Source of the DNA: an uncultured Dialister sp.
GTDB taxonomy: Bacteria > Bacillota > Negativicutes > Veillonellales > Dialisteraceae
DNA: 64,000 nt
Assembly: GCA_934178345.1 (NCBI GenBank)
Contig: CAKPQG010000007.1
Location: forward strand, 9,817-73,816
Direction of reading: 5' to 3'
Shown: positions 1,611-64,000 of the stretch, piece by piece
How positions within the stretch are numbered: the stretch's first letter is position 1
Layout: every line of letters begins with the position of its first letter
Made by a program: the position numbers and the translations under genes
Notes under the pieces: model-generated
What the model saw: only the letters and a program-made list of their open reading frames with translations
Told to the model about the DNA's origin: nothing
Database searches by the model: none

Positions 1611-1905
1611 ATGCGAAATGAGAAAGGGTGGTGCGGAGGAAACGCCATTTCAACAATAGCGCGAGCCAACCCCGCCTCGCTGCGCTCGGCAGCCCCTGGG
1701 GCGGCTCGCCCCTTGATTACGTTTGAAAGCTTCGATTGAATGAAAAATGAGAAATGGTGGTGCGGCGCATAAAAATATGAAAGCGCCGCAAAGTATAAAT
1801 AATGGCGATGCCATGAGCTGGCATTCCAGTTACCAGTCACTTGAGACTCCTACTCCCTAGCCACTCATCCCTGCTTTCAAACTTGTAGCTCCCGTATCGT
1901 CATTT
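1611..1905. repeat. mosaic intergenic repeat cluster
   Basis: Contains the GGTGGTGCGGCGCATAAAAAT box, a GCGCCGC box, CAGTCAC and TAGGGAT-type heptads, the AAGTTTGAAAGCAGGGATGAGTGGCTAGGGA box and the CGTCATTTCGAGCGTAGTCGAGAAATC box, all shared with other clusters. Confidence 0.85.
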
Positions 1906-2130
1906 CGAGCGTAGTCGAGAAATCTTTTTGGCACTCCTGTTTCCTTAGAACCCGTTGAACCTGTCTATCGCTCTTCACAAAAAAATTATTTCCCCACTCT
2001 TGCGTATTCGTGGTATAATAAATTGTATTTCCGAATATATGATAACTTGACGGTTTCACTATAGAGTGAAGTCATCATCAAAAAAGTGCGCCTAGGCGCA
2101 ATAGGTTGCCCGAGGGGGAAAAGGAAAGAA

Positions 2131-3951
2131 ATGAAAAGAGAAGATATCCGCAACATTGCCATCATCGCTCACGTCGACCATGGTAAGACGACTCTGGTCG
2201 ATGCCATGCTGAAGCAGAGCCACATTTTCAGAGATAACCAGAAGGTCGCAGAACGCGTCATGGACTCGAATCCACTGGAACGTGAACGCGGCATCACGAT
2301 CCTGGCGAAAAATACCTCTGTCATGCATGACGGTGTGAAGATCAATATCGTCGACACCCCAGGGCATGCGGACTTCGGCGGCGAAGTTGAACGTATCCTG
2401 AACATGGTCGATGGCGTACTGCTCCTCGTCGATGCTCATGAAGGCCCGATGCCGCAGACGAAGTACGTCCTGAGAAAAGCACTGGAACACAAGCTGAAGC
2501 CGATCGTCGTCATCAATAAGATCGACCGTCCGGATCAGCGTATTTCCGATGTCGAAGGCGAGATCCTCGAGCTCTTCATGGAACTTGATGCGGACGATGA
2601 CCAGCTCGATTTCCCGCTGCTCTATGCATCGGCTAGAAGCGGCATCGCCAAGCTCCACATGAATGATGAAGGCAAGAACCTTGACCCGCTCTTTGATGCG
2701 ATCCTGAAGTATATCCCATGCCCGGAAGGCGAACCGGATGCCGGCCTGCAGGTCATGGTCACCACGCTCGAAGCGGATGACTACCTCGGCAAGGTCGCTA
2801 TCGGCCGTGTGACCCGCGGTACCGCGAAGCAGGGGATGCCTGTCGCTATCACCGATGGCGAAAAGATCAGAAGCGACCATATCGGTCAGCTCTTCCACTG
2901 GCAGGGCATGAAACGTACGCCTGTCGATGAAGCAAAGGTCGGCGACATCATCGCTATGGCCGGCTTCAAAGATATCAATATCGGTGAAACGGTCGCTGAT
3001 GCGACGAACCCGGAAGCACTGCCGGCGATCCACATCGACGAACCGACCCTGTCCATGGTATTCCATGTCAATAAGAGCCCATTTGCCGGCCGTGAGGGTG
3101 ACTTCGTCACTTCCCGCCATATCCGTGCCCGTCTCTACAAGGAAATCGAAACGAACGTGGCTCTTCGTGTAGAAGACACGGAAACATCTGATGCATTCAA
3201 GGTTTCCGGCCGTGGCGAGCTCCACCTCTCCGTCCTGATCGAGACCATGCGCCGTGAAGGCTTCGAACTTGAAGTCTCCAAGCCGCAGGTCATTTTCAAG
3301 GAGATCAATGGACAGAAGTGCGAACCGCTCGAACGTCTGACCATCGAAGTACCGCAGGAATTCATGGGTGCTGTCATGGAAGGTCTTGGACCGAGAAAAG
3401 CAGAAATGATCTCCATGGAAGAACTCGCAGGCTATATGAAGATGGAATTCTCCATCCCGGCCCGCGGCCTCATCGGCTTCCGTAATGAACTCCTGACCAC
3501 CACCCGCGGTACAGGTATCCTCTACCATGTCTTCCAGGGCTATGCGCCATACAAGGGTGATATCCCGGGCAGAACCAGAGGCTCCCTCGTGGCTTTCGAA
3601 TCCGGCACCACCACCGCATACGGCCTGAACTCTGTCCTCGACCGGGGCGAGCTTTTCCTGGAACCGGGCGTCGAAGTCTATGAAGGCATGATCATCGGTG
3701 AAAATACCCGTGATCAGGATATGGATGTCAACCCATGCAAAAAGAAACATCTGACCAACACCCGTGCCTCCGGCTCTGATGATGCCATCAAGCTGCCGCC
3801 ATGCCGCAAGTTCACGCTGGAAGGGGCGCTCGAATGGATCAATGATGATGAACTCGTCGAAGTCACTCCGGAAAACATCCGTATGAGAAAGATGGTTCTT
3901 TCCCGTCAGGCTAGATATAAGAGTGCCAATGTAAAGAAAAGCCAGCAGTAA
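2131..3951 (+). CDS. typA: translational GTPase TypA/BipA
   Basis: N-terminal [11 protein letters not shown]1 motif, [20 protein letters not shown], and an EF-G-like domain architecture. RBS GGAAAGG before ATG 2131. Confidence 0.9.
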
Positions 3952-3960
3952 TCGCTGAAT

Positions 3961-3993: not shown

Positions 3994-4335
3994 TTTGGAG
4001 AAGAAGGAGGAAAATGAGGAATGAAGAATGGTGGTGCGGCGCATCATACAATGAAAGCGCTGCGGATTATTGGAATCACGTAAAATGCGTCGCCCCTTGG
4101 AGAAGGGGCAGGCCGAAGGCCAGGGATAGACTGCCTCGAAGAGGCAGATTTCTGCAGAACGGCCAGTAGGCCTCTTGCGGATCACTGAAAAACGATTCAC
4201 GCAGATGGGATGCTGGCAGCTACGTAGAGTTGTGCCCCTGCGGGGCACTCTATCCGGCGCCTTTGGCGCGACCCCTCTCCAGGGGTCTGCTCAGCTCGCG
4301 AGGATTTCCTAATCCCTAGCTACCAGTCACCAGTC
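3994..4335. repeat. mosaic intergenic repeat cluster
   Basis: GGTGGTGCGGCGCATCA box, GCGCTGCGG, GGACTGGTGACTGGTAGCTAGGGATTAGGAAATCC heptads. Confidence 0.8.
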
Positions 4336-4336
4336 C

Positions 4337-5933
4337 CTAATTTTTTCCATTCATCACCATCACGTCTCCCGCTTCGAGTACGGTATCTCCTTTCGGGATG
4401 ATGACTTCTCCTTGTCTTAGGATGAGAACGACAAGATGACCGTGGGGGAGGCGGAGAGAGGAGAGGCTCTTCTGGTAATAGCGGCTCTTCTTCGTGACAT
4501 GGATTTCCGAGAGGGCAAGGCCTGTGACAGGAGCGACGCTCAAAGCAGAAAGGACCAGCGTATCTCCGGCAGAGAGTCTCGTGTCGCCATTCGGGATGAT
4601 CTTCTCGGTGCCGCGGGAAAGAAGGATGGCGAGCGTTTCAGGAGGGAATGCGATCTCTGAGAGTGCCTGCCCGCACCACGCATGCCCGGCGGGCAGGGTG
4701 AACTGGATGAATTGTACCGGCATCTCTTCCGTGTAGTCCGTGAAGGATTTCATGACATCGCTCTCATGATCGATCATAGAGAGCTTCTTCGCTGCGAGCG
4801 GCAGAAGCGCGCCCTGAAAGAGGATGGAAAGAAGAACGATGAAGAAGGTGACATGGAAGACGATGTCATTCACCGGCGCCTGCGTATAAGCGACGATGGC
4901 AAAGACGATGGCGGAAGCCCCGCGAAGGCCTGCGAAGGAGATCAGAGCGCTTGCGGCAGCGGGCGTTTTGAAAGGGGCAAGGAGAGCGAAGACGCCGAGA
5001 GGCCTTGCCACGAAGGTCAGGAAGAGCGCGATGAGGAAGGCAGGCCATGCGATCTCAGGGAGCTTCGATGGCGTGGAGAGAAGCCCCAGCAGGAAGAAGA
5101 TCATCATGGAGAGAAGATTCGTTGCGCCATTGAAGAAATGAACAATCGAGCGCTTTCCGGGGAAATCGCTGTTTCCTAAAATGATGCCGGCAATATAGGC
5201 GGAGAGGTAGCCATTTCCATCCAGCATTGCGGGAGCGGCATAGGCAAAGATAGCGATGGCGGTCAAAAGCACCATGTCGAAGCCGCCTGCGAGATAGTCG
5301 GTCTTTTTCAGCGCCCACTTCGAGATGGCTGCGATGCCGAAGCCGAAGGCAAGCCCGAAAACGATCTGCGCTGCGAGAAGCATGAGCGTCCCCCAAAGGT
5401 CAGCGGAACCATGCATGAGAGAAATGCAGATGATCGTCATCATGTAAGCGGCGGGATCGTTACTGCCGCTCTCTACTTCCAGGAGCGAGGCGGTGTGATA
5501 CTTGAGATTCAGCCTTTTCGCACGGAGGATGGAGAAGACGGATGCAGCATCCGTCGAGGCGATGACCGACCCCATGAGGAAGCTCAGAAGCCATGGTTCG
5601 CCTAGGATGAAGTGGATGAATCCGCCTGTCAAAAGGGCTGTCACGACGACGCCCGCACTCGAAAGTACGATCGCAGGGGCGGCGACAGGCTTTGCCATAG
5701 ACCAGTTCGTCCCGAAGCCTCCGTAGAACATGATAAAGATGAGTGCGGTCGAGCAGATCTCTTCGGCAAAGTTGTAGTTTTCAAAAGCAATATTGATAGG
5801 ACCATCCGAGCCGAAAAACATACCGAGCAGGATAAAGGCGAGAAGCACAGGGATGCCGAGCTTGTCCGAGACACGGTTCAAAAACACACAGGCAAAGATC
5901 ACAATGGCCGTCAAGAGCAGGAAAGAAGTCATA
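4337..5933 (-). CDS. monovalent cation:proton antiporter (CPA1/NhaP-type K+/H+) with a C-terminal TrkA-C (RCK_C) domain
   Basis: About 12 TM N-terminal transporter domain, then a soluble C-terminus with TrkA-C-like repeats (GDTLVLSA..., GDVMVMNG). ATG at 5933 preceded by GGAGA. Confidence 0.75.
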
Positions 5934-5989: not shown

Positions 5990-6340
5990 GAGAGAAAGAA
6001 CAATGGTGGAAGCCGTTTCATGTGTATCGTCATTTCGAGCGAAGTCGAGAAATCCTCCTTGCAGACCGATAAAGGACGCGCGAAAGTAGAAAGAGGCAGC
6101 ACACAGGTGTTGTTTTCTTGGGATGACGACACGGAGAAACCGTATTTTCAACAAGCGCGCGACCAACCCCGTCTCGCTGCGCTCGACTGCCCCTTCCAAA
6201 GGAAGGGGCGAGAATGGTGAATGACGTTCCATCCCCCTAGTCCCTAGTCACAAGTCCCTAGTCACCAGTTACCATTCACTCCCTAATCCCTAACTTTCTT
6301 TTTTGCGCTATAATAGAGACAGGTGTAAAAATAAAAGGAG
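5990..6340. repeat. mosaic intergenic repeat cluster
   Basis: CGTCATTTCGAGCGAAGTCGAGAAATC box, a GCGC box and CCCTAGTCCCTAGTCAC heptads. Confidence 0.8.
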
Positions 6341-6348: not shown

Positions 6349-6954
6349 ATGAAAGCTGATTGTGCAAACTGCCCGCATCATGCCTGCTATACCCGTGGGG
6401 CGAATTGTACGGGTGTGAAAGAAGAGGAGATCCGTAAGGCCTATACCGAAGAAGAACGGAAAATCATGGAGGCGGCGGCCTATGTTGAAGGGACATACTA
6501 CAGCGACATCTGCCGTCTGCAGGAGACCGCTGAATTTGCCAAACGGATGGGCTACAAGAAGCTCGGCCTGGCCTTCTGCATCGGTCTTCATGAAGAAGCC
6601 AGATACATCGTGAAATACTTTCGCCAGCAGGGCTTCGAGGTCTACTCCCTCTGCTGCAAGAACTGTTCCTTTGCGAAGAAAAACTTCGGCTTAAAGCAGG
6701 TGCATCCGGAAGCGGAGCATGAAGCGATGTGCAATCCGAAGTTTCAGGCAAGGTTTCTGGCAGAAAAAGGCGTGGATCTCAATATCATCTGCGGCCTTTG
6801 CGTGGGACATGACACGATCTTCACCTCGAATGCGGTAGGACCTGTCACATCTCTTGTCGTGAAAGACAGACTCCTCGCGCACAATCCTCTGGGGGCGATC
6901 TACTCGAGATACTGGAGAAAGAAACTGCATATTCAGGACGAGGATGAGATATAA
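6349..6954 (+). CDS. Cys-rich metal-binding protein, probable DUF1847 family
   Basis: MKADCANCPHHACYTRGANCTG N-terminus, internal CCKNCSF and ICGLCVGHD motifs; AAGGAGG RBS. Confidence 0.6.
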   Translation: MKADCANCPHHACYTRGANCTGVKEEEIRKAYTEEERKIMEAAAYVEGTYYSDICRLQETAEFAKRMGYKKLGLAFCIGLHEEARYIVKYFRQQGFEVYSLCCKNCSFAKKNFGLKQVHPEAEHEAMCNPKFQARFLAEKGVDLNIICGLCVGHDTIFTSNAVGPVTSLVVKDRLLAHNPLGAIYSRYWRKKLHIQDEDEI

Positions 6955-6955
6955 T

Positions 6956-7545
6956 TTGGAGGTTCAGGGTTCAGGGTTCAGGGTTCAGGGTTAGTCTCGA
7001 GGGCGTGCTGCCCCTTGATGGGGAATGAAATCTTTGCTCGAATTAGGGATTAGGAATGAAGGATCTAAGCACCGCGGAGTTTTAGAATATACGTTATTCA
7101 CGTAAGATGAGAAACCTGTGAACCTTTTGAACCTTCAGAAACCGTTTAACCTATGAAGCTTCATAAATAAGGGATAAGAATAGCCTGCTTTCAAACTTGA
7201 AGTATATAGAGCGATGCACTTACTTCGATTTTTCCCTCCTTCCTCTGGAAGTAGGGAAAAGGGGGATGAGTAGCCCATCTACCCCCTTCCTATGGAAGGG
7301 GGGATGCCCGAAGGGCGGGGGTTGGCCGAAGGCGAAAAAGAGCGAAGCCAACCTCCGGCGCTACGCGCCACCTCCTTCCAGAGGAAGGAGGGAGAAGGGG
7401 ATAGAAGAAGTGTAACAACGCTCATCTTAAGGAAGCGCCGCGGAGTATAGATGGTGGCAATGTCACTTTCGGGCATCGCTTCATAGATACTCGCGGAGAA
7501 GCCGCTACCACAACCCTGAACCTTGAACCCATCAACCTGAACCCT
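6956..7545. repeat. mosaic intergenic repeat cluster, including (GGTTCAG)4-5 and (GAACCTNTT)n tandems
   Basis: Four tandem GGTTCAG copies at 6961-6995; modules shared with the other clusters. Confidence 0.85.
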
Positions 7546-7552
7546 GAATCGT

Positions 7553-9335: not shown

Positions 9336-9712
9336 AAAAGGGTTCAGGGTTAGCTCATGGGACGTGCCGTCCCTTGGTTGTTTGCGAAAAAGGGAGAGCG
9401 GGTTCTATAGGTTCAGAGGGTTCAACGGGGGCGGTGCGGCGCATAAAAATAATGAAGCGCCGCGGAGTTTTGATAGCGCTTCGCGCCGTCGTCATTTCGA
9501 GCGTAGCCGAGAAATCTCTATGGCAGAGCGCTCATTGCCTGATGTGAGACAGCACCAAGACATCGTTTCCCCTCAGTGCATACACGCTGATTTCCGCAGT
9601 GCAGTAGAGATCGAGGGCTACGCTCGGGATGACGATGCCGGAGAATCCCAGTCACCAGTCACTAGTCACCAGTCACTAGTCACTCCTAATCCCCAAACCC
9701 AAAAGCGAATTA
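9336..9712. repeat. mosaic intergenic repeat cluster containing one copy of the palindromic CGTCATTTCGAGCG module
   Basis: GGTTCAGGGTTAG, GGTGCGGCGCATAAAAAT, GCGCCGCGGAG, the CGTCATTTCGAGCGTAGCCGAG...CTCGGGATGACGATG module, and (CAGTCACY)4. Confidence 0.85.
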
Positions 9713-12829: not shown

Positions 12830-13470
12830 CTTTTGGTATAATGGGGTAGGGTTCAGGGGTAGCCCGTGGGGCGTGCTGCCCTTTGATTGGGGATGAAAGC
12901 TTTGCTCGAATGAGGAATTAGGAATGAGGAATTAGGAATGGTGGTGCGGCGCATAAAAATCAGAAGCGCCGCGGAGTTGTGATAGCGCTTCGCGCGCATC
13001 GTCATTTCGAGCGTAGCCGAGGGTCTTTATTGCAGAACGTTCATCGCCTGATATGAGGCAACACCAGGACATCGTTTTCCCTCGGCGCATACACGCTGAT
13101 TCCCGCAATGCACTAAAGATCCCTCGGCTGCGCTCGGGATGACGATGCCGGAGAATCCCAGTCACGCCTAATCCCCAATCCCTAATCCCTAGCCACTCAT
13201 CCCTGTTTTCAAACTTAGCCTCTGGGCGTGCCGCCCTTTGATTACGTGCGAAAGAGGTTCAGTGGGGGAGCAGGTTCGGAGGGTAGGGCGGGGATGGTGC
13301 GGCGCATAAAAACATAGAAGCGCCGCGGAGTATAGATGGTGGCGATGCCCGAAGGCGGTATTCAAGTCACCAGTCACTAGTCACTAGTCGCTCGAGGCTC
13401 CTAATCCCTAGCTACTAATTTTTAGTCACCAGTCACTCACCCCTGATTTCTAGGACTACCCCCCAAAAAA
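12830..13470. repeat. mosaic intergenic repeat cluster with a palindromic CGTCATTTCGAGCG module copy
   Basis: GGGTTCAGGGG, (AGGAATT)n, GGTGGTGCGGCGCATAAAAAT, GCGCCGCGGAG, the 210-bp module, and TAGGGAT/CAGTCAC heptads. Confidence 0.85.
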
Positions 13471-15285: not shown

Positions 15286-15333
15286 GGGAAACGCTGATTA
15301 AATCTGACTTTGCAATTGAATCAGCGTTTCCAT
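15286..15333. mobile_element. short-form MITE-like element (TIR pair only)
   Basis: GGGAAACGCTGATTAAATC and GATTGAATCAGCGTTTCC inverted repeats separated by about 10 nt. The same termini occur on the 167-bp copies. Confidence 0.6.
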
Positions 15334-15839: not shown

Positions 15840-15877
15840 AAAGTGATGCTACTTGCGGGCGGCATCACTTTTTTGGT
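15840..15877 (+). terminator. intrinsic terminator
   Basis: AGTGATGC-tacttgcgggcg-GCATCACT followed by TTTTTT. Confidence 0.7.
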
Positions 15878-15879
15878 GA

Positions 15880-16395
15880 CTAAGTGGCTAGTGGCTGGTG
15901 ACTAGTGACTGGTGACTGGTGACTTGTGACTGGTAGCTAGGGATTAGTGGCTAGGGATTAGGATTGCGATATGAGAAAACCGCTAGTTTCAAACCTCCGC
16001 GGCGCTTCCATATTTTTATGCGCCGCACCACCCCCGTTGAACCTTCTGAACCTGTTGAACCCGCTCCCCCTCTTTTGCAAACAATCAAGGAACGAGCCGC
16101 CCACGGGCTAACCCTGAACCCTGAAGTTTGAAAGCAGGGATGAGTAGCTAGGGATTAGGGATTGGGGATTAGGAGTGACTAGTGACTGGTGACTAGTGAC
16201 TTGAATACCGCCTTCGGGCATCGCCCTATTTATACTCTGCGGCGAAGCCGCCACCTTCATTCCTCATTCCTAATTCCTAATTTATGCGAAGCTTTCATCC
16301 CCAATCAAAGGGCGGCACGCCCCCGAGGCTAACCCTGAACCCTGAACCCTGAACCCTGAACCCTGAACCCTAAATAACCTTGTCAAGCAAAACCC
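15880..16395. repeat. mosaic intergenic repeat cluster with about 1.5 copies of the roughly 255-bp composite unit
   Basis: Heptad blocks, GCGGCGCTTCCATATTTTTATGCGCCGCACCACC, (GAACCTNTT)n, CAAAGGGCGGCACGCCC, and (CCCTGAA)5 at 16329-16372. Confidence 0.85.
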
Positions 16396-47110: not shown

Positions 47111-47263
47111 ACCTGAACCTTCACCTCATTTACATTCTATTTACAATCTAAACTCAAACCGTACACCATTCTCTCTTTCCTTTTTACATCCATCCCTTAG
47201 ACTACAAATATCAACGCAAGAGAAAACAAAAAATAAAAGGTATGTCTCTAAGGAGGACACAAA

Positions 47264-48145: not shown

Positions 48146-48149
48146 ATGG

Positions 48150-48610
48150 GGGGGAGGGTTAGCCCGTGGGGCGTGACGTCCACTGATTATGAATGAAAGC
48201 TTTGCTCGAATGAGGAATTAGGAATGAGGAATTAGGAATGAAGGTGGCGGCTTCGCCGCGAATATATATGGGGCGATGCCCGAAGGTGGTATTTAGTCAC
48301 CAGTCACTAGTCCCTAGCCACTCCTAATCCCCAATCCCTAATCCCTAGCCACTCATCCCTGCTTTCAAACTTCAAACTTCAAGGTTCAGGGTTAGCCTCT
48401 GGGCGTGTCGCCCCTTGCCTGTTTGCGAAAGAGGTTCAGCAGGTTCTATAGGTTCAACGGGGGTGGTGCGGCGCATAAAAATATGGAAGCGCCGCGGAGG
48501 TTTGAAACTAGCGGTTTTCTCGTATCGCAAACCTAATCCCTAGCTACTAATCCCTAGCTACCAGTCACCTGTAATGCCTGACTGCTAAGCTCAGCCCTTT
48601 GTCCAAACAA
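48150..48610. repeat. mosaic intergenic repeat cluster (about 1.7 inverted copies of the composite unit)
   Basis: Reverse-orientation versions of the same boxes as in 40540-41050 and 15880-16395. Confidence 0.85.
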
Positions 48611-51479: not shown

Positions 51480-51700
51480 CGGGAATACAGGCTTTCTTTT
51501 TTGTGAAACGCTTCTCGAAAAAGTGAGGAGTGAGGAATTAGGAGTGAGGAGTGTTGGAAGGGGCGCATAATTCATAAAGCGCCCCAATGCCCCTTTTTAT
51601 ATTTCACGGCGCCTCCTTATTTTATGCGCCGTACCTCCACTCCTAACTCCTCATTCCTAACTCCTAACTTCTCGCTTGCTATGGGATATAGCAAGATGAT
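51480..51700. repeat. mosaic intergenic repeat cluster (GAGGAGT-heptad variant)
   Basis: (GTGAGGA)n, TTATTTTATGCGCCGTACCTCCACTCCTAACTCC. Confidence 0.75.
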
Positions 51701-52417: not shown

Positions 52418-52419
52418 GG

Positions 52420-52730
52420 GGGAGGCTTGGGGTTAGCCCAAGGGGCGGGGCGCCCATGGATTGCGGATGAAAGCCTCTCTCGAATGAGAAATGAGAAATG
52501 CGAAATGGTGGTGCGGCGCATAAAAATCAGAAGCGCCTCGGAGGTTTGAAATTAGCGATTTTCTCGTATCGCAAACCTAATCCCTAGCCACTAGTCACTA
52601 GCCACTAGCCACTAGCCACTAGTCACTAGTTACTAGTCACTAGTCACCAGTCACCAGTCACTCAAGGCCACTCATCCCTAATCCCAGATTTAGAACCTAT
52701 TACCTATGGGGGCATGCATAGGCGGCCATG
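52420..52730. repeat. mosaic intergenic repeat cluster with a roughly 10-copy (CACTAGY) heptamer tract
   Basis: Heptamer tract at 52588-52662; GGTGGTGCGGCGCATAAAAAT and GCGCCTCGGAG boxes. Confidence 0.85.
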
Positions 52731-52778: not shown

Positions 52779-54716
52779 ATGAGAGGAAGAATTTATAAAA
52801 GTCTGCTCTTTATGGGCATCATATCCGTGGTCGTGACATTTATACTCTCGGCCATCTTATATTACCAGGGGATGCAGGAGCAGATCAGTGCAGAGCTCGG
52901 TCGCACGGCGCGTGTTGTTTCCGGTGCGATTTCCAGAGACAGGGAAGAGAGCAGCCTCGAGTATCTGGACTGGATTTTCAAAGACAATGAACGTGCCATT
53001 CACATTGTCTGGCTCGATACCGATGGCTCTGTCATCTATGACAGTGACCACAAAGAGGAGGATTACAAGGCAAGCGGCGAAGTGAAGGCGGCATTTGCGA
53101 CAGGCCGTGGACACGAAGTGCATAAGGACTCCTTTGACAAGCCGAAGAGCTATTATGCCGTCAGAGCAGATGACGGCACGGTACTCCGGCTTTCAAGCGG
53201 ACGCATGGTGAATTACAAGGGCTACTCCTCCTACCTGCCGGAGATCTTCATCTTCCTTCTGGTCTTCACCGTAGGCTGTCTGGCTGCGGCGGAACGGGAG
53301 ACGGAAAACATTTTGAAGCCCTTCCATCTTTTGGGAGAGCTCGTGCAGCGTATCATGAAGGGGGAAAAGGTAGACGCGCTGCCTCCTGAATATAAGGAGC
53401 TGCGTCCCCTCATCCGCAAGGTCGAAGAGCAGCACAAGGATATCGAGAACTATATGGAGGATATCGAAGAGGAAAGAAATACGATCCGCATCGTGGTCGA
53501 TACCATCGCAGACGGCATCATCCTTCTGAATGGCAGCCGTGAAATTATCGATTACAATAATGCGATCGAAGATATTTTCCATCCGAATGAGAACAAGCGC
53601 TTCCGTCGTATAGCAAGCCTGTATCATGATGAGGACTGGCTTCGCGTCATCGGCAAAGCCTACCACAGCGAGGGGAAGCAGGAGTACACCATGTGCCTCT
53701 TTGATAAGCCCTTCCGCATGGTCATGAATCGGATCGAACTCACTGACGGAGAATCCGGCCTTCTCATCGTACTTCGTGATATGACGGCCTCCTACATGGC
53801 TGAAAAAATGCGCCGCGAATTTTCCGCCAATGTTTCGCACGAGCTGAAGACACCGCTGACCTCCATCAGCGGGTTCGCAGAAATGATCGCCAATGGCATG
53901 TACCAGAAGCCGGAGGACGTGCGCCTCTTCGGCAGCCGCATCGTGAATGAATCCCAGCGGATGCTGACACTGATCGATACCATCATGCATCTTTCCAAGA
54001 TCGAGGAGACAGAGACCACCATCACATGGAAGACTGTCTCTGCGGACAGCCTGGTGCGGTATGCAGCCGATCTCATTTCTCCGCAGGCAGATGCCAAGCA
54101 TGTCAAGGTACATGTGGATACAGACCCGCTTTACACCTATGGCAATGCGGCACTTCTCTCCGAGCTTATCATGAATCTCCTGGATAATGCGGTGAAATAC
54201 AACCATGAAGGCGGGGATGTATACGCACGCCTCTCACCGGAAGGGGAAGACAAGATGATCCTCACGGTATCGGATACAGGTATCGGCATTCCGAAGGATA
54301 AGCAGGGGCGCGTCTTTGAGCGCTTCTACCGCGCCGAAGCGAGCCGCAACAAAGCGACCGGCGGCAGCGGACTCGGACTTGCCATCTGTAAGCATATCGT
54401 AGAAAAGCACAAGGGCATGCTCTCTATCGAAAGTACCGAAGGGGAAGGCACGACCGTCACCGTTATCCTGCCCAGAATGAGCGAAGGCGACGTGGATCGA
54501 GAGCAGGCCGAAGCCATGACGGCAAAGCAGGAAGCGGCAGATGCAGAGTCTGGTCGTCTCGCCGCCGAAGAAGCCGAAGAAGACAGAAAGGCCAGCGAAG
54601 CCGCGGGTGATGTCAAAGGCGAAAAGGCGGGAAAAGACGTACACCACAAGGTCAAGAAGCCGAAGAAAGAAAAGAAAGAGAAGGGACGGAAGAAGGAAGA
54701 AAAGAAGAAAAAGTGA
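52779..54716 (+). CDS. sensor histidine kinase (PhoR-like) with a C-terminal Lys/Glu-rich tail
   Basis: 2 TM, PAS, HisKA (SHELKTPL), HATPase_c (GGSGLGLAI). C-terminal KVKKPKKEKKEKGRKKEEKKKK. Confidence 0.85.
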   Translation: MRGRIYKSLLFMGIISVVVTFILSAILYYQGMQEQISAELGRTARVVSGAISRDREESSLEYLDWIFKDNERAIHIVWLDTDGSVIYDSDHKEEDYKASGEVKAAFATGRGHEVHKDSFDKPKSYYAVRADDGTVLRLSSGRMVNYKGYSSYLPEIFIFLLVFTVGCLAAAERETENILKPFHLLGELVQRIMKGEKVDALPPEYKELRPLIRKVEEQHKDIENYMEDIEEERNTIRIVVDTIADGIILLNGSREIIDYNNAIEDIFHPNENKRFRRIASLYHDEDWLRVIGKAYHSEGKQEYTMCLFDKPFRMVMNRIELTDGESGLLIVLRDMTASYMAEKMRREFSANVSHELKTPLTSISGFAEMIANGMYQKPEDVRLFGSRIVNESQRMLTLIDTIMHLSKIEETETTITWKTVSADSLVRYAADLISPQADAKHVKVHVDTDPLYTYGNAALLSELIMNLLDNAVKYNHEGGDVYARLSPEGEDKMILTVSDTGIGIPKDKQGRVFERFYRAEASRNKATGGSGLGLAICKHIVEKHKGMLSIESTEGEGTTVTVILPRMSEGDVDREQAEAMTAKQEAADAESGRLAAEEAEEDRKASEAAGDVKGEKAGKDVHHKVKKPKKEKKEKGRKKEEKKKK

Positions 54717-54719
54717 TTT

Positions 54720-54990
54720 GTGGCTGGTGACTAGGGACTGGGGGCTAGGGATTAGGAGTCTCAAGTGACTGGTGACTAGTGACTGGTAGCTAGGGATTAG
54801 TGGCTAGGGATTAGGTTTGCGATACGAGAAAATCGCTAATTTCAAACCTCCGCGGCGCTTCTGATTTTTATGCGCCGCACCACCATTCCTAATTCCTCAT
54901 TCCTAATTCCTCATTCGCGCAAAGCTTTCATTCATAATCAGTGGACGGAGCCGCCCGAGGGGCTAACCCTTGAATCCGACAACCTTTATT
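54720..54990. repeat. mosaic intergenic repeat cluster
   Basis: Heptads; TTTGCGATACGAGAAAATCGCTAATTTCAAACCTCCGCGGCGCTTCTGATTTTTATGCGCCGCACCACC; (ATTCCTA)n. Confidence 0.85.
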
Positions 54991-58043: not shown

Positions 58044-58110
58044 AATCCCTGGGGAAACGCTGATTCAGTCGCAGAGGCAGATTTTACAAGAACTTTTATA
58101 CATGATTTCG
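58044..58110. mobile_element. truncated copy (5' half) of the 167-bp MITE-like element
   Basis: GGGGAAACGCTGATTCAGTCGCAGAGGCAGATTTTACAAGAACTTTTATACATGATTTCGTCAT aligns to the left half of copy 60969-61135, then diverges. Confidence 0.5.
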
Positions 58111-58217
58111 TCATGCCCTTTCTTGAATAGCTCGATACGACTTGTACCCCAAGCCCCGCCCATTTGCGCCTTTATGATATAATCGAAAGTGGAAACGTAT
58201 AGAAAGGGAGAAACGAA

Positions 58218-59389: not shown

Positions 59390-60700
59390 ATGGACTCTTT
59401 ATTCGACATGTCCCCGGAGGCGGGGAAGCGGTATGCCCCCTTGGCGGATCGCATGCGCCCCAGGCGGCTTGAAGACATCGTCGGACAGGACGGTGCCGTT
59501 GGACGGCAGTCATTCCTTTATCGCATGATAGAGCGGGATACGATCCCATCTCTTCTTCTTTTTGGCCCGCCAGGATGCGGGAAGACGACGATCGCATCGG
59601 TCATTGCAGAAATGACGAAGAGCTGTTTCGTCAAGGTGAATGCGACCTCGAGCGGGATCAAAGAAATCCGGGATGTGGTTTCCAAGGCGAAAGAGGAGCT
59701 TTCGTATTACCAGCGGCGGACGATCGTTTTCATCGATGAAATCCACCGGTTCAATAAGGGGCAGCAGGATGTGCTTCTGCCTTATGTGGAGGATGGGACA
59801 TTCATCCTCATCGGTGCGACGACGGAGAATCCTTATTTTGAAATCAATGGGCCGCTGCTCTCCCGTCTGCGGCTGATCCATCTGAAGCGACTTACTGATG
59901 AAGCGATCATCTCGGTGCTTCATCGCGCGCTCGATGATGAAAAGAATGGACTGGCCATTCATCGCTATACGGCAAAACCAGAGGCACTCTCTCTCATTGC
60001 TGCCTATGCCTCCGGGGATACGCGCGTCGCGCTGAATCTCTTGGAACAGTCGACATCCATGCTGAGGGATGGAGGCTCTCTGACAGAAAAGGAAATCGGC
60101 GAGGTGGCAGGTGTTCAGATCTCCAGCTATGATAAGCAGGGGGACTATCATTACAATATCGTCTCTGCCTTCATCAAGAGCATGCGAGGGAGTGATCCTG
60201 ATGCAGCGCTGCACTATCTGGCGCGCATGATCGATGGAGGGGAGAAGACGTCTTTCATTTCACGCCGCATCATGATTTGTGCGGCGGAAGATGTAGGCCT
60301 TGCGGATCCGCGAGCGCTGCAGGTGGCGGTATCAGCGGCGCAGGCGGCGGAAATGGTCGGCTTTCCTGAGTCGCAGATCATCCTTGCGGAAGCCGTGCTC
60401 TATATTTGCCTCGCGCCGAAGAGCAACAGCGCCTGCTCTGGCATTTTTGCCGCCGAAGGGGAGGAAAAGACAAGAAAGGACTGGTCCATCCCCGCGCACC
60501 TCATGGACTCGCACTACAGCGGAGCGAAGAAAATGGGGCTTGGCATCGGATATAAGTATCCTCACGATTTCGGTGGATGGGTAGAGCAGCAGTATCTTCC
60601 TGATGAGCTCGTAGGACACCAGTACTACAAGCCCCGCCCGCTCGGGCAGGAAGGCGACATGGTGCGCGCCTGGTGGGCGAGAAGAAAGGGAAGTAAGTGA
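59390..60700 (+). CDS. rarA: replication-associated recombination protein A (RarA/MgsA AAA+ ATPase)
   Basis: GPPGCGKTT Walker A, FIDEIHRFNK Walker B/sensor, MgsA C-terminal domain. Confidence 0.88.
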   Translation: MDSLFDMSPEAGKRYAPLADRMRPRRLEDIVGQDGAVGRQSFLYRMIERDTIPSLLLFGPPGCGKTTIASVIAEMTKSCFVKVNATSSGIKEIRDVVSKAKEELSYYQRRTIVFIDEIHRFNKGQQDVLLPYVEDGTFILIGATTENPYFEINGPLLSRLRLIHLKRLTDEAIISVLHRALDDEKNGLAIHRYTAKPEALSLIAAYASGDTRVALNLLEQSTSMLRDGGSLTEKEIGEVAGVQISSYDKQGDYHYNIVSAFIKSMRGSDPDAALHYLARMIDGGEKTSFISRRIMICAAEDVGLADPRALQVAVSAAQAAEMVGFPESQIILAEAVLYICLAPKSNSACSGIFAAEGEEKTRKDWSIPAHLMDSHYSGAKKMGLGIGYKYPHDFGGWVEQQYLPDELVGHQYYKPRPLGQEGDMVRAWWARRKGSK

Positions 60701-60704
60701 CTGG

Positions 60705-60968
60705 TGACTGGAATGCCAACTCATGGCACCACCATTTCGCATTTCTCATTTCTCATGCAATCGAGGCTTTCAAACGTAATCAAGGGGCGAGCCGCCCCAC
60801 GGACTAAGTTTGAAAGCAGGGACGAGTAGCTAGGGATTAGGGATTGGGGATTAGGAGTGACTGGTGGCTGGTGACTGGGATTTCTCCGGCATCGTCATCC
60901 CGAGCGCAGCCGAGGATCTTTACTGCACTGCGGGAATCAGTGTGTATGCGCCGAGGGAAAAAGATGTC
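60705..60968. repeat. mosaic repeat cluster (left part) containing a palindromic-module copy that is interrupted by a MITE
   Basis: GGTGGTGCCATGA, heptads, CATCGTCATCCCGAGCGCAGCCGAGGATCTTTACTGCACTGCGGGAATCAGTGTGTATGCGCCGAGGGAAAAAGATGTCC up to the MITE insertion point. Confidence 0.8.
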
Positions 60969-61135
60969 CTAGGGAAACGCTGATTAAATCGCAGAGTCGA
61001 ATTTCATATGGATTTTTATACATAGCTTCGTCATCATCTTCCTTAAATAGCTCGCTATTCGCGTCAGATGATTCCTTGCTCTGTATAAAAATCCAAGAAT
61101 GAAATCTGACAACGATTTAATCAGTGTTTCCCTAG
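60969..61135. mobile_element. 167-bp MITE-like element, inverted relative to copy 28916-29082, nested inside a palindromic-module repeat
   Basis: TIRs CTAGGGAAACGCTGATTAAATCG and CGATTTAATCAGTGTTTCCCTAG. The interior is about 95% identical to the reverse complement of the 28916-29082 copy. Flanking sequence continues the interrupted module. Confidence 0.85.
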
Positions 61136-61370
61136 TGCTGCCTCCCATCAGGCGATGACCGTTCTGCAATAAAGACCCTCGGCTACGCTCGAAATGACGA
61201 TGCGCCGCGCGAAGCGCTATCAAAATTCCGCGGCGCTTCTGATTTTTATGCGCCGCACCTTCATTCCTAATTCCTCATTCCTAATTCCTCATTCAAGCAG
61301 AGCTTTCATATACAATCAAGGGACAGCACGTCCCCGGGGCTAACCCTGCACCTGCACCTAATAAAGGAGA
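61136..61370. repeat. mosaic repeat cluster (right part, continuation of the interrupted module)
   Basis: TGCTGCCTCCCATCAGGCGATGACCGTTCTGCAATAAAGACCCTCGGCTACGCTCGAAATGACGATG; GCGCCGCGCGAAGCGCTATCAAAATTCCGCGGCGCTTCTGATTTTTATGCGCCGCACC; (TTCCTAA)n. Confidence 0.8.
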
Positions 61371-61385
61371 CATAACCATTTATCC

Positions 61386-63878
61386 ATGAAAAAGAAGACA
61401 GCAAGCCGGAGACGGACGACGAGAGTGACAAAGAGCGGGGAGAAGAGCTATGAGATCACAGGTGTGATTCTCTTCCTCTTCGGCCTTTTCATTCTCTTTA
61501 GTCTTTTTAGCGACAGTACCGGTTTTTTCGGAGATATTACGAATAAAGGTAGCCATTTCCTCTTCGGATTCGGCGCGCCTTTCTGCGCCCTTTTGATGAT
61601 GTTTTTCGGTGGGCGCTATGCCGTGACATCGAAAGGAATTTCCTGGGACAGGCGCGTTGCGCTGGTCATCCTGCTGGTGCTGCTCCTCTTCATGGCGGTG
61701 CATCATTTTCTGGTCCCTTTTGGAAGAGAAATGGATATCCAGTCGATCCTCACCTATGGCGGGATCGTCGGGGCGGGATTCTGCGTCTTTTTCCATGACG
61801 CGATGGGATACTGGGGGACGACGCTGGTGCTCCTCGGGGCCATCGTGATCGATGTGCTTCTGCTGACGCACTGGTCACTCTCCAAGGGCGCGCAGAAAGT
61901 GGGCTCGAAGGCGCAGGTGCTCGGAAAGAAAACAGGCGAGAAGATCGAAGCCGCAGCCATGCGGCTCAGGGAAAAGAAAGCGGCGCTGGATGCTGCCAGA
62001 AGTGCTGCTCGGCTGGAAGTACTTGATGATAAGCCGACGGAGTTCATTTACAAGAAGAATGAAGAAAATGCGGTAGAACTGATGGAAGAGGAGCCTCCGG
62101 CAGAAGATATGGCGGTCCCTGCGCAGATGCCGGATGCGGAAGAGCCACCGATTTCCGTAGAAGAGCCTATCGAAGAAATCCCTCCGGAAGCGGACGAAGA
62201 AGCGCAGGAAGAGCCGCTGATGCCGGAGGAGCCGGTCGAAGAGATCGAAGAACCACCGATGCCACCGCTACCGGAAACGGAGGAGGAAGCGGCAGAAGAA
62301 CCACTGGAAGAACCGGTAGAAGAGATGCCCGGGGAAGAGAAGCCGGAGGAGGACATTCATCCGATACCGGTAGCGCCCGTCTCAGCAGACCCGGCGCATC
62401 CGGCACCTGCGGCTGAAGAAGGGCCGGTGTACCAGTTTCCTCCGCTGTCGCTTCTTCATGCGGGAACAAATGCAGGGCAGGGAGAGGCCGATGCAGGACA
62501 GAAGGCGGCGCTCATCGAGTCGACGCTTGCCAGCTTCGGGGTCCGGGCGAAGGTCGTTCACTACAGCGTGGGGCCGACGGTGACGCGTTTCGAACTCAAG
62601 CCGGAAATGGGCGTCCGCGTGAGCAAGATCGAAGGGCTTTCGAATGAGCTCGCCATGGCTCTTGAGGCGACACATATCCGCATCGAAGCCCCGATCCCGG
62701 GGAAATCTGCGGTCGGCATCGAGATCCCGAATACGAAGGCGGCGTCTGTGCCGCTTCATGATGTGCTTGCCAGCGATGCCTTTCAGCATGGCAAGGGCCA
62801 TATCCTTGTGGCTCTGGGGAAGGGCATCACCGGGAAGACCGTTGTGACCGATCTGGCGAAGGCGCCGCATCTTCTGATCGCAGGCTCGACCGGCAGCGGC
62901 AAGAGCGTGTGCATCAATTCCATCATCACGAGCATCATTTACCATAGCCGCCCTGACGAAGTGAAGCTCATGCTCATCGATCCAAAGGTGGTCGAGCTCT
63001 CTGTCTATAACGGCATCCCGCATCTGCGCACGGAAGTCGTGACCGATATGAAGAAGGCGCAGGGGACGCTGAATTGGGCTGTCCGTGAAATGGAAGCCCG
63101 TTACCAGCTCTTTGCCGGGGCGAAGGTGCGAAATATCGAAGGGTATAATAAGATGTACCCTGATAAAAAGATGCCCTATATTTTACTGATCGTCGATGAA
63201 TTTGCCGACCTCATGAATGTCGCGGCCAAAGAAGTCGAAGTCCTGATCCAGCGTCTGACGCAGAAGGCGCGTGCCGCCGGCATCCATCTGATCCTTGCGA
63301 CACAGAGACCGTCAGCCGATGTCATCACCGGCGTCATCAAATCCAACATTCCGAGCCGTATCGCCTTCATGGTCGAGTCGGGGCTCAATTCCCGCATCAT
63401 TCTCGATGAGGGAGGGGCAGAATCTCTGCTCGGCAAGGGCGATATGCTCTTCAAGCAGGCAGGAGCGCTCAGTACTGTCCGTATTCAGGGGGCGTTCATC
63501 TCGGACGAAGAGGTCGAGGATGTGGTGAACTATGTCAGGGCAGAGTGCATCCGTCAGGAAAGCCATGTCGTCTATGAGCCGATCGATCTTTCTATCCCGG
63601 AAAAAACAGAGAAAGAGGAGGAAATGGTCGAAGAGCAGGATGATCTCATGCCGGAGGCTTCGGAATGGGTGCTCGATACGAAGCGCGCTTCTGTCTCCGC
63701 TCTACAGCGCCGATTCCGCATCGGTTATACCCGGGCCGGCCGTCTCATGGATACCATGGAACGCCTCGGCATCGTCGGCCCCGCAGAAGGGGCAAAGCCA
63801 AGAGATATTCTGGTCAATAAGGAGCAGCTGGCCGGTATTTTGGCTGGTGGAAAGAATGAGGAGAATGGTGACGAGTGA
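61386..63878 (+). CDS. ftsK: DNA translocase FtsK/SpoIIIE
   Basis: N-terminal 4-TM domain, Pro/Glu-rich linker, motor domain (GSTGSGKS Walker A), C-terminal gamma winged-helix domain. Confidence 0.9.
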   Translation: MKKKTASRRRTTRVTKSGEKSYEITGVILFLFGLFILFSLFSDSTGFFGDITNKGSHFLFGFGAPFCALLMMFFGGRYAVTSKGISWDRRVALVILLVLLLFMAVHHFLVPFGREMDIQSILTYGGIVGAGFCVFFHDAMGYWGTTLVLLGAIVIDVLLLTHWSLSKGAQKVGSKAQVLGKKTGEKIEAAAMRLREKKAALDAARSAARLEVLDDKPTEFIYKKNEENAVELMEEEPPAEDMAVPAQMPDAEEPPISVEEPIEEIPPEADEEAQEEPLMPEEPVEEIEEPPMPPLPETEEEAAEEPLEEPVEEMPGEEKPEEDIHPIPVAPVSADPAHPAPAAEEGPVYQFPPLSLLHAGTNAGQGEADAGQKAALIESTLASFGVRAKVVHYSVGPTVTRFELKPEMGVRVSKIEGLSNELAMALEATHIRIEAPIPGKSAVGIEIPNTKAASVPLHDVLASDAFQHGKGHILVALGKGITGKTVVTDLAKAPHLLIAGSTGSGKSVCINSIITSIIYHSRPDEVKLMLIDPKVVELSVYNGIPHLRTEVVTDMKKAQGTLNWAVREMEARYQLFAGAKVRNIEGYNKMYPDKKMPYILLIVDEFADLMNVAAKEVEVLIQRLTQKARAAGIHLILATQRPSADVITGVIKSNIPSRIAFMVESGLNSRIILDEGGAESLLGKGDMLFKQAGALSTVRIQGAFISDEEVEDVVNYVRAECIRQESHVVYEPIDLSIPEKTEKEEEMVEEQDDLMPEASEWVLDTKRASVSALQRRFRIGYTRAGRLMDTMERLGIVGPAEGAKPRDILVNKEQLAGILAGGKNEENGDE

Positions 63879-63879
63879 C

Positions 63880-64000
63880 TGCTGGCTGGCAGCGTTTCCC
63901 CAGAGATTAGGAGCGCTCGGTCACGGGTGATTTGAGACTGGCATGCCACTCTCGGGTATTGCCATATTATATTTGTGGTGAAGCCGCCGCCACTATTTTT
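63880..64000. repeat. start of another repeat cluster, truncated by the window end
   Basis: GGTGAAGCCGCCGCCAC box. Confidence 0.5.

Follow-up and report, generated by a model that had tools for sequence, protein, structure and literature searches.

Mosaic extragenic repeats of heptamer arrays and hairpin boxes in the gut bacterium Dialister

The intergenic DNA of a gut Dialister lineage carries a new family of mosaic extragenic repeats, in which several heptamer microsatellites are combined within one ordered unit, active MITEs (miniature inverted-repeat transposable elements) are nested in the units, and the local density is unusually high. The family was characterized in a stretch of 64,000 nucleotides from an uncultured Dialister sp. 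(GenBank assembly GCA_934178345.1, contig CAKPQG010000007.1, positions 9,817 to 73,816 of the forward strand), hereafter called the window, to which all coordinates refer unless another sequence is named. The source of the window is a gut Dialister species complex. No description of the repeat family was found in the full-text literature searched for Dialister repeats and for the heptamer strings. We favour, with a probability of about 0.55, the reading that the repeats are parasitic mosaic elements similar to pneumococcal BOX sequences and to the bacterial interspersed mosaic elements (BIMEs), and that they have been diversified by slippage and ectopic recombination. On the whole, they look like fast-evolving genomic parasites and not like new machinery.

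Anatomy, amount and spread of the repeats

Side-by-side reading of all clusters, together with mismatch-tolerant mapping of nine modules, revealed a single ordered base unit of ~190-230 bp; the complete units without insertions (33 distinct sequences) measure 150-250 bp. In the forward orientation, the left part of the unit opens with the A-box AAGTTTGAAAGCAGGGATGAGT, which is followed by [TAGGGAT/TAGTGGC]n, by [GTGACTR]n and by a linker. The right part consists of [ATTCCTN, ATTTCTC or ACTCCTN]n or of the nonamers (GAACCTNNT)n, then of the E-box (..CTTTCA.....AATCAAGGGGCRGCACGCCCC..GGGCTA), which holds a GGGGC-5 nt-GCCCC hairpin, and finally of [ACCCTGA]n. The GC hairpins of the linker are alternatives, either UUCG-type CCGCCTTCGGGCATCGCC, GCGGCGAAGCCGC, or GCGGCGC-14 nt-GCGCCGC, and the linker itself occurs in three versions: B1 AATACCGCCTTCGGGCATCGCC (a C(UUCG)G-type hairpin) with B2 CTGCGGCGAAGCCGCCACC, B3 AGGTTTGCGATACGAGAAAACCGCTAGTTTCAAACCT with the B5/B4 hairpin CCGCGGCGC-14 nt-GCGCCGCACCACC, or B1 with B5/B4. 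Units are single or stacked head to tail and are found in both orientations; the hairpins differ from one another within a unit and keep a fixed order. The boxes, listed as unique modules in a first-pass annotation of the window, are not independent of each other, being fixed parts of this one ordered unit.

Units of the ATTCCT and ACTCCT subtypes have a left heptamer arm that is repeated, in inverted form, by the right one (25-42 nt, ~80% complementary), and no inverted arms were found in units of the nonamer subtype. Copy numbers of the left- and right-arm heptamers are uncorrelated (rho 0.27, p 0.13), and symmetry of the arms was dropped as a design rule because their lengths do not covary. 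Read by eye, all heptamers on one strand fit a loose purine-rich pattern, TRGNRRY, which suggests that they descended from each other by mutation and re-expansion.

Self-BLAST of the window marked 6,695 bases as repeated, in ~24 blocks, and a BLAST comparison with non-orthologous loci of further Dialister genomes marked 7,168-7,669, which bears out the 7-8 kb of repeat DNA estimated in the first-pass annotation. The repeats account for ~11% of the window and for ~50% of its intergenic DNA (6.4 of 12.9 kb), and only 296 repeat bases lie inside genes. A curated gene map has 28 intergenic regions that reach 100 bp or more, and 21 of them contain at least 50 bp of repeat. The earlier description of repeats in nearly every intergenic region holds for these 21 spacers and is a slight overstatement, as seven long spacers are repeat-free (among them 10869-11092, 14122-14309, 30673-30958, 37559-37669 and 44696-44819). 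Every module named at that stage was found, on both strands and at the kind of site described, and the palindromic module of 210 bp is real: it corresponds to the MITE M1 described below, with five or six copies in the window that carry 25-nt terminal inverted repeats (TIRs).

The 15-mer TTTATGCGCCGCACC of the B4 box occurs 15 times in the window (0.00 expected from 100 shuffles). Tandem Repeats Finder detected 44 period-7 arrays, of which 43 lie inside clusters, against 0-3 in 20 shuffled sequences. There are ten copies of TTTTATGCGCCGCACCACC, nine of GCGCCGCGGAG and four of each GC hairpin, and the A-box, taken as a 35-mer, is present in three exact copies and in ~12 with mismatches. The tetranucleotide CTAG is found at 69 sites in 7.3 kb of repeats (9.4 per kb) and is strongly avoided in the remaining 56.7 kb, with 15 sites (0.26 per kb). 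Its abundance in the repeats comes from the several heptamers that contain it (GACTAGT, GCTAGGG); restriction avoidance, repair bias and foreign origin are possible causes of the contrast. The same tetranucleotide doubles as the target of the MITE M2.

To assess dispersal beyond the window, each species was represented by one genome and scanned for exact matches to the GC-rich 16-mer box TTTATGCGCCGCACCA; at least 106 stretches were returned, 57 of them with at least three different modules. Among the matches listed, these 57 are all from Dialister genomes, and those from other phyla are single chance matches without any further module. The module-bearing genomes represent at least seven Dialister species (i34-0019-2H8, UMGS543, UMGS571, UBA10667, B5_5, Map_127_009 and a Hadza metagenome-assembled genome (MAG)), and on the 2.52-Mb chromosome of the isolate i34-0019-2H8 the modules occupy at least 12 spread positions, from 0.25 to 2.46 Mb. 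Confinement of the repeats to this one region, named in the first-pass annotation as the result that would refute its reading, was not found: the modules occur genome-wide and across the Dialister clade. Sister strains were gathered by means of exact-sequence anchors (Ffh, PstB, L20 and MscL), which gave ~25 independent assemblies of the region, including long-read polished contigs of 2.4-2.5 Mb and an isolate genome, with coding DNA 93.5-99.8% identical to that of the window. A search for Ffh homologues returned near-identical proteins only, and the L20 anchor was used instead for cross-species spacers; the Ffh protein of the window, which NCBI names 'Dialister sp.', is indexed for 2,055 blocks of the assembly collection, and the L20 protein for 17,511.

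The presence of the same modules at unrelated loci, in the genomes of at least seven species and around a 2.5-Mb chromosome, shows that they are not the product of a local duplication. A duplication or an assembly artefact limited to this region is thus of negligible probability. Nothing beyond the high local density speaks for it, and against it stand the modules of at least 57 loci from other positions and other Dialister genomes, the recurrence of the repeats in the ~25 assemblies, long-read polished contigs and isolate genome included, and the behaviour of short-read contigs, which break at the clusters instead of creating them. A phage or plasmid vector was also considered and rejected: the phage collection gave no match, and repeats were present in only one of 14 IMG/VR matches, at a contig end. 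That sole viral-collection contig (L141, IMG/VR UViG_3300045988_103942; L numbers designate sequences compared with the window) is probably a Dialister prophage with host flank, its repeats being host DNA. Contigs with the full Dialister repeat set were also seen in bins labelled Fusicatenibacter saccharivorans H07641-L1 (L001, L005, L012, L014, L017, L074, L085 and L105) and Paludibacteraceae H07622-L1 (L056 and L064); they have 46-57% G+C and are probably mis-binned Dialister.

Strain turnover, nested transposons and mobilizing enzymes

The clusters are polymorphic between strains, and the system is active on the strain time scale. Eight of nine comparable spacers differ in length between strains with identical Ffh or L20 proteins, and gain or loss of single heptamers is seen nearly everywhere in the strain alignments. 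Whole units vary as well: one or two are present, depending on the strain, upstream of ffh and in the sulfatase/HD spacer, and zero, one or two in the pstS-pstC spacer, where the two-unit and one-unit alleles differ by a replacement with ends in the E-box and the B4 box. MITEs are present or absent, and entire spacer alleles have been exchanged, unit-bearing sequence being found in some strains and unrelated unit-free sequence in others between conserved flanks. The yebC/ubiE spacer (21750..22217) is empty in some sister strains and holds one reverse unit or gene islands in others. An extra segment of ~335 bp in the spacer between the SDF (sodium:dicarboxylate symporter) and URO-D genes (33896-34431), bracketed by two direct copies of ~45 bp of the AGTCACY-CCTAATC array, is missing from L144 and L147. 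A ~12-copy array of heptamers that are not in the window, CAGAAGT>CTGAAGT>CTGATGT>CTAATGT, has taken the place of part of a hairpin box in L147 (~3720-4113; the orthologous window positions are 33853-34431), where a new heptamer family seems to be emerging through stepwise mutation and expansion. The outer ends of clusters are usually constant across strains and the interior varies. No target-site duplication (TSD) of the unit was found among 31 distinct flank pairs at the AAGTTTGAAAG and GGCTA(ACCCTGA)n ends. Since the changes are internal, with breakpoints in arrays and boxes, and since the unit has no TSD, slippage and homologous or ectopic recombination are indicated, and not cut-and-paste transposition of units.

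Some spacers with repeats also harbour islands that are specific to a strain. In L107 (14889-16062; window equivalent, 21672-22336), yebC is followed by a BREX system (brxA/B/C, pglX-like). L109 (14889-17934) has a D12 methyltransferase/HTH island between direct repeats of ~70 bp, in which half an M2 element is included. In L145 (6864-12429), a conjugative-element segment (type IV secretion system coupling protein, TrbL-like protein) adjoins a rubredoxin gene, at a site corresponding approximately to window 30523-30958, where the window has tRNA-Leu. Gene content to the left of the sulfatase gene also varies by strain; the window has panC and SBF genes there.

At least two MITE families, M1 and M2, are nested in the units at preferred positions, up to three levels deep. 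M1 has 25-nt TIRs (CGTCATTTCGAGCGTAGCC..) with 84% complementary arms, forms one size class (35 copies in the compared loci) and always adjoins the GCGCCGCGGAG box; the strain comparisons yielded no clean pair of filled and empty alleles for M1 by itself. M2, of ~165 bp, is devoid of coding capacity, has 19-nt TIRs that are 95% complementary (AGGGAAACRCTGATTAAAT; ends GGGAAACGCTGATTAAATC) and falls into discrete size classes of 140-160 bp and of 40-60 bp, the latter being TIR-only copies of ~45 bp. It is found in the window alone, as the TIR-only derivative, and within a copy of M1 that in turn is nested in a unit. The empty site is preserved in L120 and L128 as CCTAGTGC, in the context ..GATGTCCTAGTGC.., with a single TA at CCTAGT, and the filled allele of the window and of L119 reads CCTA[M2]TAGTGC. 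Filled and empty alleles together reveal a TA target duplication at CTAG. Such a duplication is the signature of IS630/Tc1-type transposition. M2 is a genuine MITE: it has TIRs and a TA duplication, occurs as filled and empty alleles, and carries no transposase. The MITEs would be moved in trans by transposases encoded elsewhere and M2, judged by its TA/CTAG target, by an IS630/Tc1-like enzyme. In the loci examined, no autonomous partner of M2 was found, and no TIR pair encloses a transposase open reading frame (ORF); TIR pairs spanning >400 bp, considered as transposase carriers, bracket housekeeping genes only. Other GC-rich palindromic inserts (4060-4300, 7215-7400, 28230-28454 and 34124-34330) recur in other genomes.

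An enzyme that could mobilize the units themselves was sought by a direct Pfam scan of three housekeeping ORFs at 105-6232 and, for the other genes, through Pfam annotation, including that precomputed for the sister strains. No transposase, integrase, Y1/HUH domain or transposase of the RAYT type (associated with repetitive extragenic palindromic (REP) sequences) was detected on any scanned or annotated ORF of the window or of the same genes in the sister strains, in agreement with the first-pass annotation, which had seen no transposase or RAYT gene in the window. When the 1,124 ORFs encoded in ~0.5 Mb of DNA with repeats were clustered all against all, no linked multi-copy ORF family present in at least three loci emerged, and the loci examined contained no autonomous copy of the heptamer-box unit. 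An A..E pair spanning 2 kb in L033 was rejected as an autonomous copy because it encloses a TrkA-like (potassium-uptake) gene, and an IS1182-like insertion sequence (DUF772 + DDE_Tnp_1; L109, L112 ~1100-2990, upstream of the sulfatase gene) was rejected because its ends are unrelated to any repeat module. An active, possibly trans-mobilized system had been proposed from the sequence; rapid turnover and the nested MITE M2 agree with this proposal, and trans-mobilization is unproven for the units, for which no TSD, no autonomous copy and no linked multi-copy ORF were found.

Movement of the REP/REPIN type would offer another explanation, in which the GC hairpin boxes (E, B4/B5, B1 and B2) are the recognition hairpins of a RAYT or IS200/IS605-like HUH/Y1 enzyme that is encoded once elsewhere and that excises and inserts units as single-stranded DNA, the heptamer arrays being passengers or slippage products. 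Short GC-rich imperfect palindromes with conserved flanks, present in hundreds per genome, and the BIME-like mosaic organization would be expected under this explanation; no DDE transposase is associated with the units, and they show no clear TIR or TSD signature, as HUH-mediated movement predicts. We nonetheless hold it to be very unlikely. No RAYT/Y1 domain was seen in the window, inverted REP doublets are not formed by the hairpins, no conserved GTAG-like tetranucleotide stands at the hairpin foot, and the breakpoints of change lie in heptamer arrays and boxes, not beside hairpins. IS200/IS605-type insertion is moreover strand-biased, whereas the orientation of units relative to the replication direction inferred from GC skew is unbiased (44:50; window and 57 loci, with genes called by a codon model trained on the window).

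Placement, transcription and competing explanations

The units are confined to dispensable space: the stretch that follows a stop codon or terminator and precedes the next promoter or ribosome-binding site, operon spacers, and one 5' untranslated region (UTR). Many clusters start within a few nucleotides of a stop codon with no terminator between, and promoter-like sites lie 0-20 nt from the right end of clusters 40541-41055, 46852-47119 and 54708-54986; a consensus scan found neither promoter nor terminator consensus inside the units. Upstream of the SDF gene, its expected target of control, a T-box leader was recognized at 32064-32296 on the plus strand (90.3 bits against a gathering threshold of 93, E = 2.9e-20). 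A repeat unit is located between the terminator of this leader and the ribosome-binding site of the gene, and L144, L147 and L149 have an unrelated 90-bp allele without a unit at the same site. Units are transcribed of necessity in this 5' UTR, and probably in the pstS-pstC spacer. That they are tolerated at both sites argues against a general terminator or insulator role, which had been suggested for the clusters and which also finds no support in the consensus scan.

In the same sample of loci, clusters between tandem genes are co-oriented with transcription in a ratio of 60:34 (~64%), a preference for which the structured RNA of co-transcribed units may account. This modest transcription-linked bias would fit mild selection on the transcribed form, and not strand-specific insertion of the IS200/IS605 kind. 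The sense RNA of two ATTCCT-type units folds better than shuffled sequences (z = -3.5 and -3.0; antisense of one, -0.06). No consistent sense/antisense asymmetry was observed over 21 units, and sense-strand RNA structure was dropped as a general argument. Compensatory change in the E hairpin is not significant (covariation 0.100 vs 0.082, with 39 of 500 shuffles as high), and no unit matched a known RNA family in Rfam, in a gathering-threshold search of the whole window and in E-value searches of two cluster regions.

Recruitment of the units by the host as cis-acting RNA or DNA elements is, in our judgement, unlikely, and it could take two forms. Co-transcribed structured modules in 3' or 5' UTRs might set the stability or processing of mRNA and so the differential expression of operons, as REP does in malE-malF, or BOX. 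Alternatively, arrays in a 7-nt register might be bound by a nucleoid protein, or by one that binds single-stranded nucleic acid, and so punctuate or insulate neighbouring transcription units. Several observations would be accommodated by recruitment: clusters kept at orthologous spacers across ~6% divergence, co-orientation that follows transcription and not replication, transcription of units in the T-box 5' UTR and probably in pstS-pstC, the many clusters that begin near a stop codon without an intervening terminator, the folding of the ATTCCT-type sense RNAs, and the precedents of REP, BIME, ERIC, Correia and BOX (PMC3049150). However, spacer content is not conserved, as zero, one or two units, other heptamers or unit-free alleles are found beside identical flanking proteins, and one third of the clusters have the opposite orientation. 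The folding asymmetry is not consistent over 21 units, arm lengths do not covary, the E hairpin is without significant compensatory change, and the units contain no promoter or terminator consensus. Furthermore, the family is limited to one Dialister clade, which implies that no conserved cellular process depends on it.

Under the parasitic reading that we favour, slippage at replication would, together with homologous recombination or gene conversion between ectopic sites, be the main means by which heptamer-box units spread and are reshuffled, and the heptamer arrays of 20-80 bp and the conserved boxes would serve as homology handles; the first arrival of a unit at a new site is a step that we infer. 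Purifying selection would confine the units to neutral intergenic space, and their effect on the host would be incidental, co-transcribed units adding structured RNA to 3' and 5' UTRs. Several points weigh against this reading. The strain alignments contained no clean insertion junction or de novo arrival of a unit, and the 'empty' alleles show replaced sequence instead of a precise gap. Both the persistence of clusters at the same spacers across lineages ~6% diverged and their co-orientation with transcription could reflect function, and the hairpin boxes are highly conserved, though without significant covariation. The 36-fold enrichment of CTAG in the repeats is left without explanation by the model. 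Finally, a single-copy dedicated enzyme, RAYT or other, may be encoded elsewhere, the scans having covered the window, the sister-strain annotations and ~0.5 Mb of loci. A bolder proposal, which we regard as doubtful, is that the heptamer arrays, with 3-11 identical copies and thus of RecA-pairing length, act as portable homology handles that allow modules to be copied between unlinked sites by ectopic gene conversion, independently of any transposase. If true, this principle could explain the multi-family heptamer arrays of cyanobacteria, Beggiatoaceae and some Bacteroidetes. In a related variant, a putative single-strand-binding protein of OB-fold/cold-shock type with a 7-nt footprint may read the arrays in DNA or RNA, which would explain both the fixed period and the orientation bias linked to transcription.

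The repeats also have practical consequences. Many public short-read contigs that contain ffh are ~5.36 kb or ~8.29 kb long, which are the lengths of the unique segments 16376-21749 and 13451-21749 between clusters. From this match it follows that the repeats fragment assemblies and limit MAG quality and binning of the taxon, and this Dialister lineage is among the most frequently assembled human-gut bacteria. The clusters could serve as high-resolution strain markers, in the manner of BOX-, REP- or STRR-PCR, and allelic variation near core genes (the ffh, pst and infC operons, ftsK and pyruvate carboxylase) may alter expression between strains. To our knowledge, the origin and turnover of the short tandemly repeated repetitive (STRR) arrays of cyanobacteria have been an open question since about 1990; with the thousands of metagenomes and several long-read genomes that are available, the Dialister system could be used to measure in natural populations how mosaic repeats and multi-family heptamer arrays arise and turn over.

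The clusters and MITEs of the window are listed in Table 1. The window has 53% G+C and consists of housekeeping genes, predominantly on the plus strand. They encode an ABC-F protein, TypA, an Na+/H+ exchanger, PanC, a sulfatase-family protein, the ffh-rpsP-rimM-trmD operon and YebC; an oligopeptide ABC system, an Fe-ADH, tRNA-Leu, MscL, the SDF transporter and a UvrD/PD-(D/E)XK helicase-nuclease; and pyruvate carboxylase, pstSCAB with a two-component system, infC-rpmI-rplT, Hup and FtsK. A cyanobacterial origin, at first suspected because of the heptamers, is rejected: the panC gene is unfused, the HIP1 motif occurs only six times, and the sequence matches lead to Dialister. Two adjacent paralogues (44820-45578 and 45594-46349, ~250 aa each) have no Pfam match in any strain annotation and share an identical stretch of 54 bp (44871-44924 and 45642-45695). 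Two inverted repeats that do not belong to the repeat family lie upstream of the pst operon, at 46700-46800; one is long and perfect (TTCAGTATAGTGAA ... TTCACTATACTGAA), the other reads GGAAAAAGTTTTC / GGAAAACTTTTC, and they may be an operator.

Table 1. Repeat clusters and separate MITE copies in the window (orientation is that of the units; empty cells, nothing assigned)
Positions	Orientation	Feature	Composition	Placement
1648..1937	-	cluster	one reverse unit: B4 box 1759-1774, A-box 1863-1881; half M1 MITE end 1898-1933	spacer of ABC-F and typA genes
4000..4339	-	cluster	partial reverse unit (GAGGAAT heptamers, B4 box 4033-4048), GC-rich insert, terminal CCTAATC/AGTCACC array	convergent typA/nhaP spacer, past typA terminator
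6235..6293	-	cluster	solo heptamer arrays CCCTAGT / AGTCACC	divergent nhaP/DUF1847 spacer
6950..7199	-	cluster	reverse partial unit: GGTTCAG x4.6 (6961-6992), E-box hairpin 7000-7021, GAACCTNNT-type nonamer array 7110-7167	
7346..7549		cluster	GC-rich palindromic insert, B5 box 7432-7445, hairpins, AACCCTG array 7512-7548	immediately upstream of DUF6198 gene
9338..9703	-	cluster	reverse unit with M1 MITE ~9484-9640 (25-nt TIRs, 84% complementary)	between minus-strand SBF and panC
12835..13450	-	cluster	two reverse units head to tail (12835-13215-13450), M1 MITE in first (~12985-13150)	divergent sulfatase/HD spacer
15286..15332		M2 mini version	47 bp, TIRs only; then degenerate unit remnant to ~15430	
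15873..16375	+	cluster	two forward units head to tail (15873-16125, 16125-16375)	exactly between terminator 15846-15872 and ffh operon promoter -35/-10 (~16398-16426)
21750..22217	+	cluster	forward unit, inverted B4/B5 box, M1 MITE ~21925-22095	yebC/ubiE spacer
28114..28454	-	cluster	terminator, GGTTCAG array 28185-28207, B2 hairpin 28212-28230, GC-rich palindromic element ~28230-28454 (19-nt inverted arms)	
28914..29082		complete M2 MITE	~165 bp; TIR AGGGAAACRCTGATTAAAT, 19 nt, 95% complementary	
32368..32520	+	cluster	truncated forward unit: A-box, TAGGGAT/GTGACTR arrays, nonamers	T-box leader to SDF gene start (32572)
33896..34431	-	cluster	reverse unit 33896-34121; ~310-bp segment (M3-type element 34124-34250 + GC-rich fragment); second AGTCACY/CCTAATC array copy 34357-34431	SDF/URO-D spacer
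35535..35942	+	cluster	forward unit with M1 MITE ~35625-35790	divergent URO-D/DUF6020 spacer
40541..41055	+	cluster	two forward units head to tail (40541-40790, 40790-41055)	starts 4 nt past helicase-nuclease stop codon; ends at pyruvate carboxylase promoter region
46852..47119	+	cluster	one forward unit: A, heptamers, B1, B5/B4, nonamers, E-like, AACCYTG array	abuts -35 of pstS promoter-like site 47120-47147
48149..48572	-	cluster	two reverse units, stacked (48149-48375-48572)	within pstS-pstC spacer
51518..51676		cluster	small palindromic unit: GAGGAGT-type heptamer arm, two GC hairpins (GGGGCGC..GCGCCCC and ACGGCGC..GCGCCGT), ACTCCTN arm; arms 42 nt, 81% complementary	
52418..52685	-	cluster	one reverse unit, 11-copy CTAGTCA/CTAGCCA array 52584-52662	between response regulator and histidine kinase genes
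54708..54986	+	cluster	one forward unit	upstream of infC-rpmI-rplT promoter-like site 54998-55026
58048..58137	+	truncated M2-type MITE	left TIR + ~70 bp	downstream of hup terminator
60695..61365	+	cluster	partial unit + full forward unit; three-level nesting: M1 ~60885-61230 inside unit, M2 60972-61132 inside M1	

Relation to known repeat systems

Among the systems with which the Dialister repeats were compared, an integron attC or cassette array, suggested by the repeats that separate most genes, was rejected, since the clusters are flanked by housekeeping operons (ffh-rpsP-trmD, pstSCAB and infC-rpmI-rplT), each equipped with a promoter and a terminator, and no integrase is present. MITEs of the IS630/Tc1-mariner type, for example Correia-like elements with TA duplication, resemble M2 in their TIRs, size, TA at CTAG and strain polymorphism; the likeness is limited to the nested M2 and does not apply to the heptamer-box units.

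Tandem heptamers call to mind the cyanobacterial STRR sequences, for which Mazel and colleagues reportedly gave, in 1990, the consensus sequences CCCCAGT, TTGGTCA and CAACAGT. TAACTGA heptamer repeats were described in Beggiatoaceae, cyanobacteria and Bacteroidetes (MacGregor 2015, PMC4679880). Common to these and to the Dialister repeats are multi-family tandem heptanucleotide arrays that are mixed in intergenic regions, vary in copy number and coexist with MITEs. However, the window contains no tandem dimer of STRR1-3 (CCCCAGT, TTGGTCA, CAACAGT) or of TAACTGA, the Dialister arrays have a fixed place within a larger unit that also holds hairpin boxes, and their host belongs to another phylum, has a small genome of 2.5 Mb and lives anaerobically in the gut. 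BrickBuilt of Porphyromonas gingivalis, a MITE with an internal minisatellite (23-nt repeat), small TIRs and ~19 copies per genome (PMC4596501), is likewise intergenic and species-restricted, with leader and tail modules around a tandem array of variable length. In contrast, each Dialister unit has several heptamer arrays and no clear TIR or TSD, and there is about one box per 4 kb.

With REP sequences and BIMEs, the units share GC-rich imperfect palindromes and short motifs in a regular order, extragenic positions between terminators and promoters and in operons, and hundreds of copies per genome. They differ in having neither inverted REP doublets nor alternating Y/Z palindromic units, in that no RAYT was seen in the window or the sister-strain annotations and no replication-strand bias was detected, in heptamer arrays that BIMEs do not have, and in hairpins that are embedded in a 200-bp unit. 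The first-pass annotation placed the repeats well beyond ordinary REP/BIME content; this is justified for density and heptamer content, and the repeats are not different in kind.

BOX, RUP and SPRITE together make up a few per cent of the pneumococcal genome, and the local density of ~11% in Dialister seems higher. BOX itself (boxA-boxB(n)-boxC) is made of modular, length-variable arrays, is nested with RUP and SPRITE, includes a composite with a T-box and has a parasitic distribution (Croucher et al. 2011, PMC3049150). The two families agree in being composite extragenic repeats with fixed terminal modules, a variable internal tandem count and length polymorphism between strains, in their partial self-complementarity when transcribed, and in their occurrence in both orientations, in clusters and inserted into one another. 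One BOX lies in a T-box 5' UTR, flanked by T-box leaders, comparable to the Dialister unit at 32064-32520, each family is found in a single species group, and BOX has been read as parasitic, with incidental effects on co-transcribed genes (PMC3049150). The variable parts, however, are 7-nt and 9-nt microsatellites of several families in Dialister and a 45-bp boxB in the pneumococcus, and the Dialister units have several alternative hairpin linkers and are stacked head to tail. Rfam and phage-collection searches gave no match that would point to a sequence relation, and the Dialister host is a Negativicute of Gram-negative type with 53% G+C. Taken together, pneumococcal BOX and enterobacterial BIMEs appear by analogy to be the closest functional counterparts of the Dialister repeats, the microsatellite part being comparable to arrays of the STRR type.

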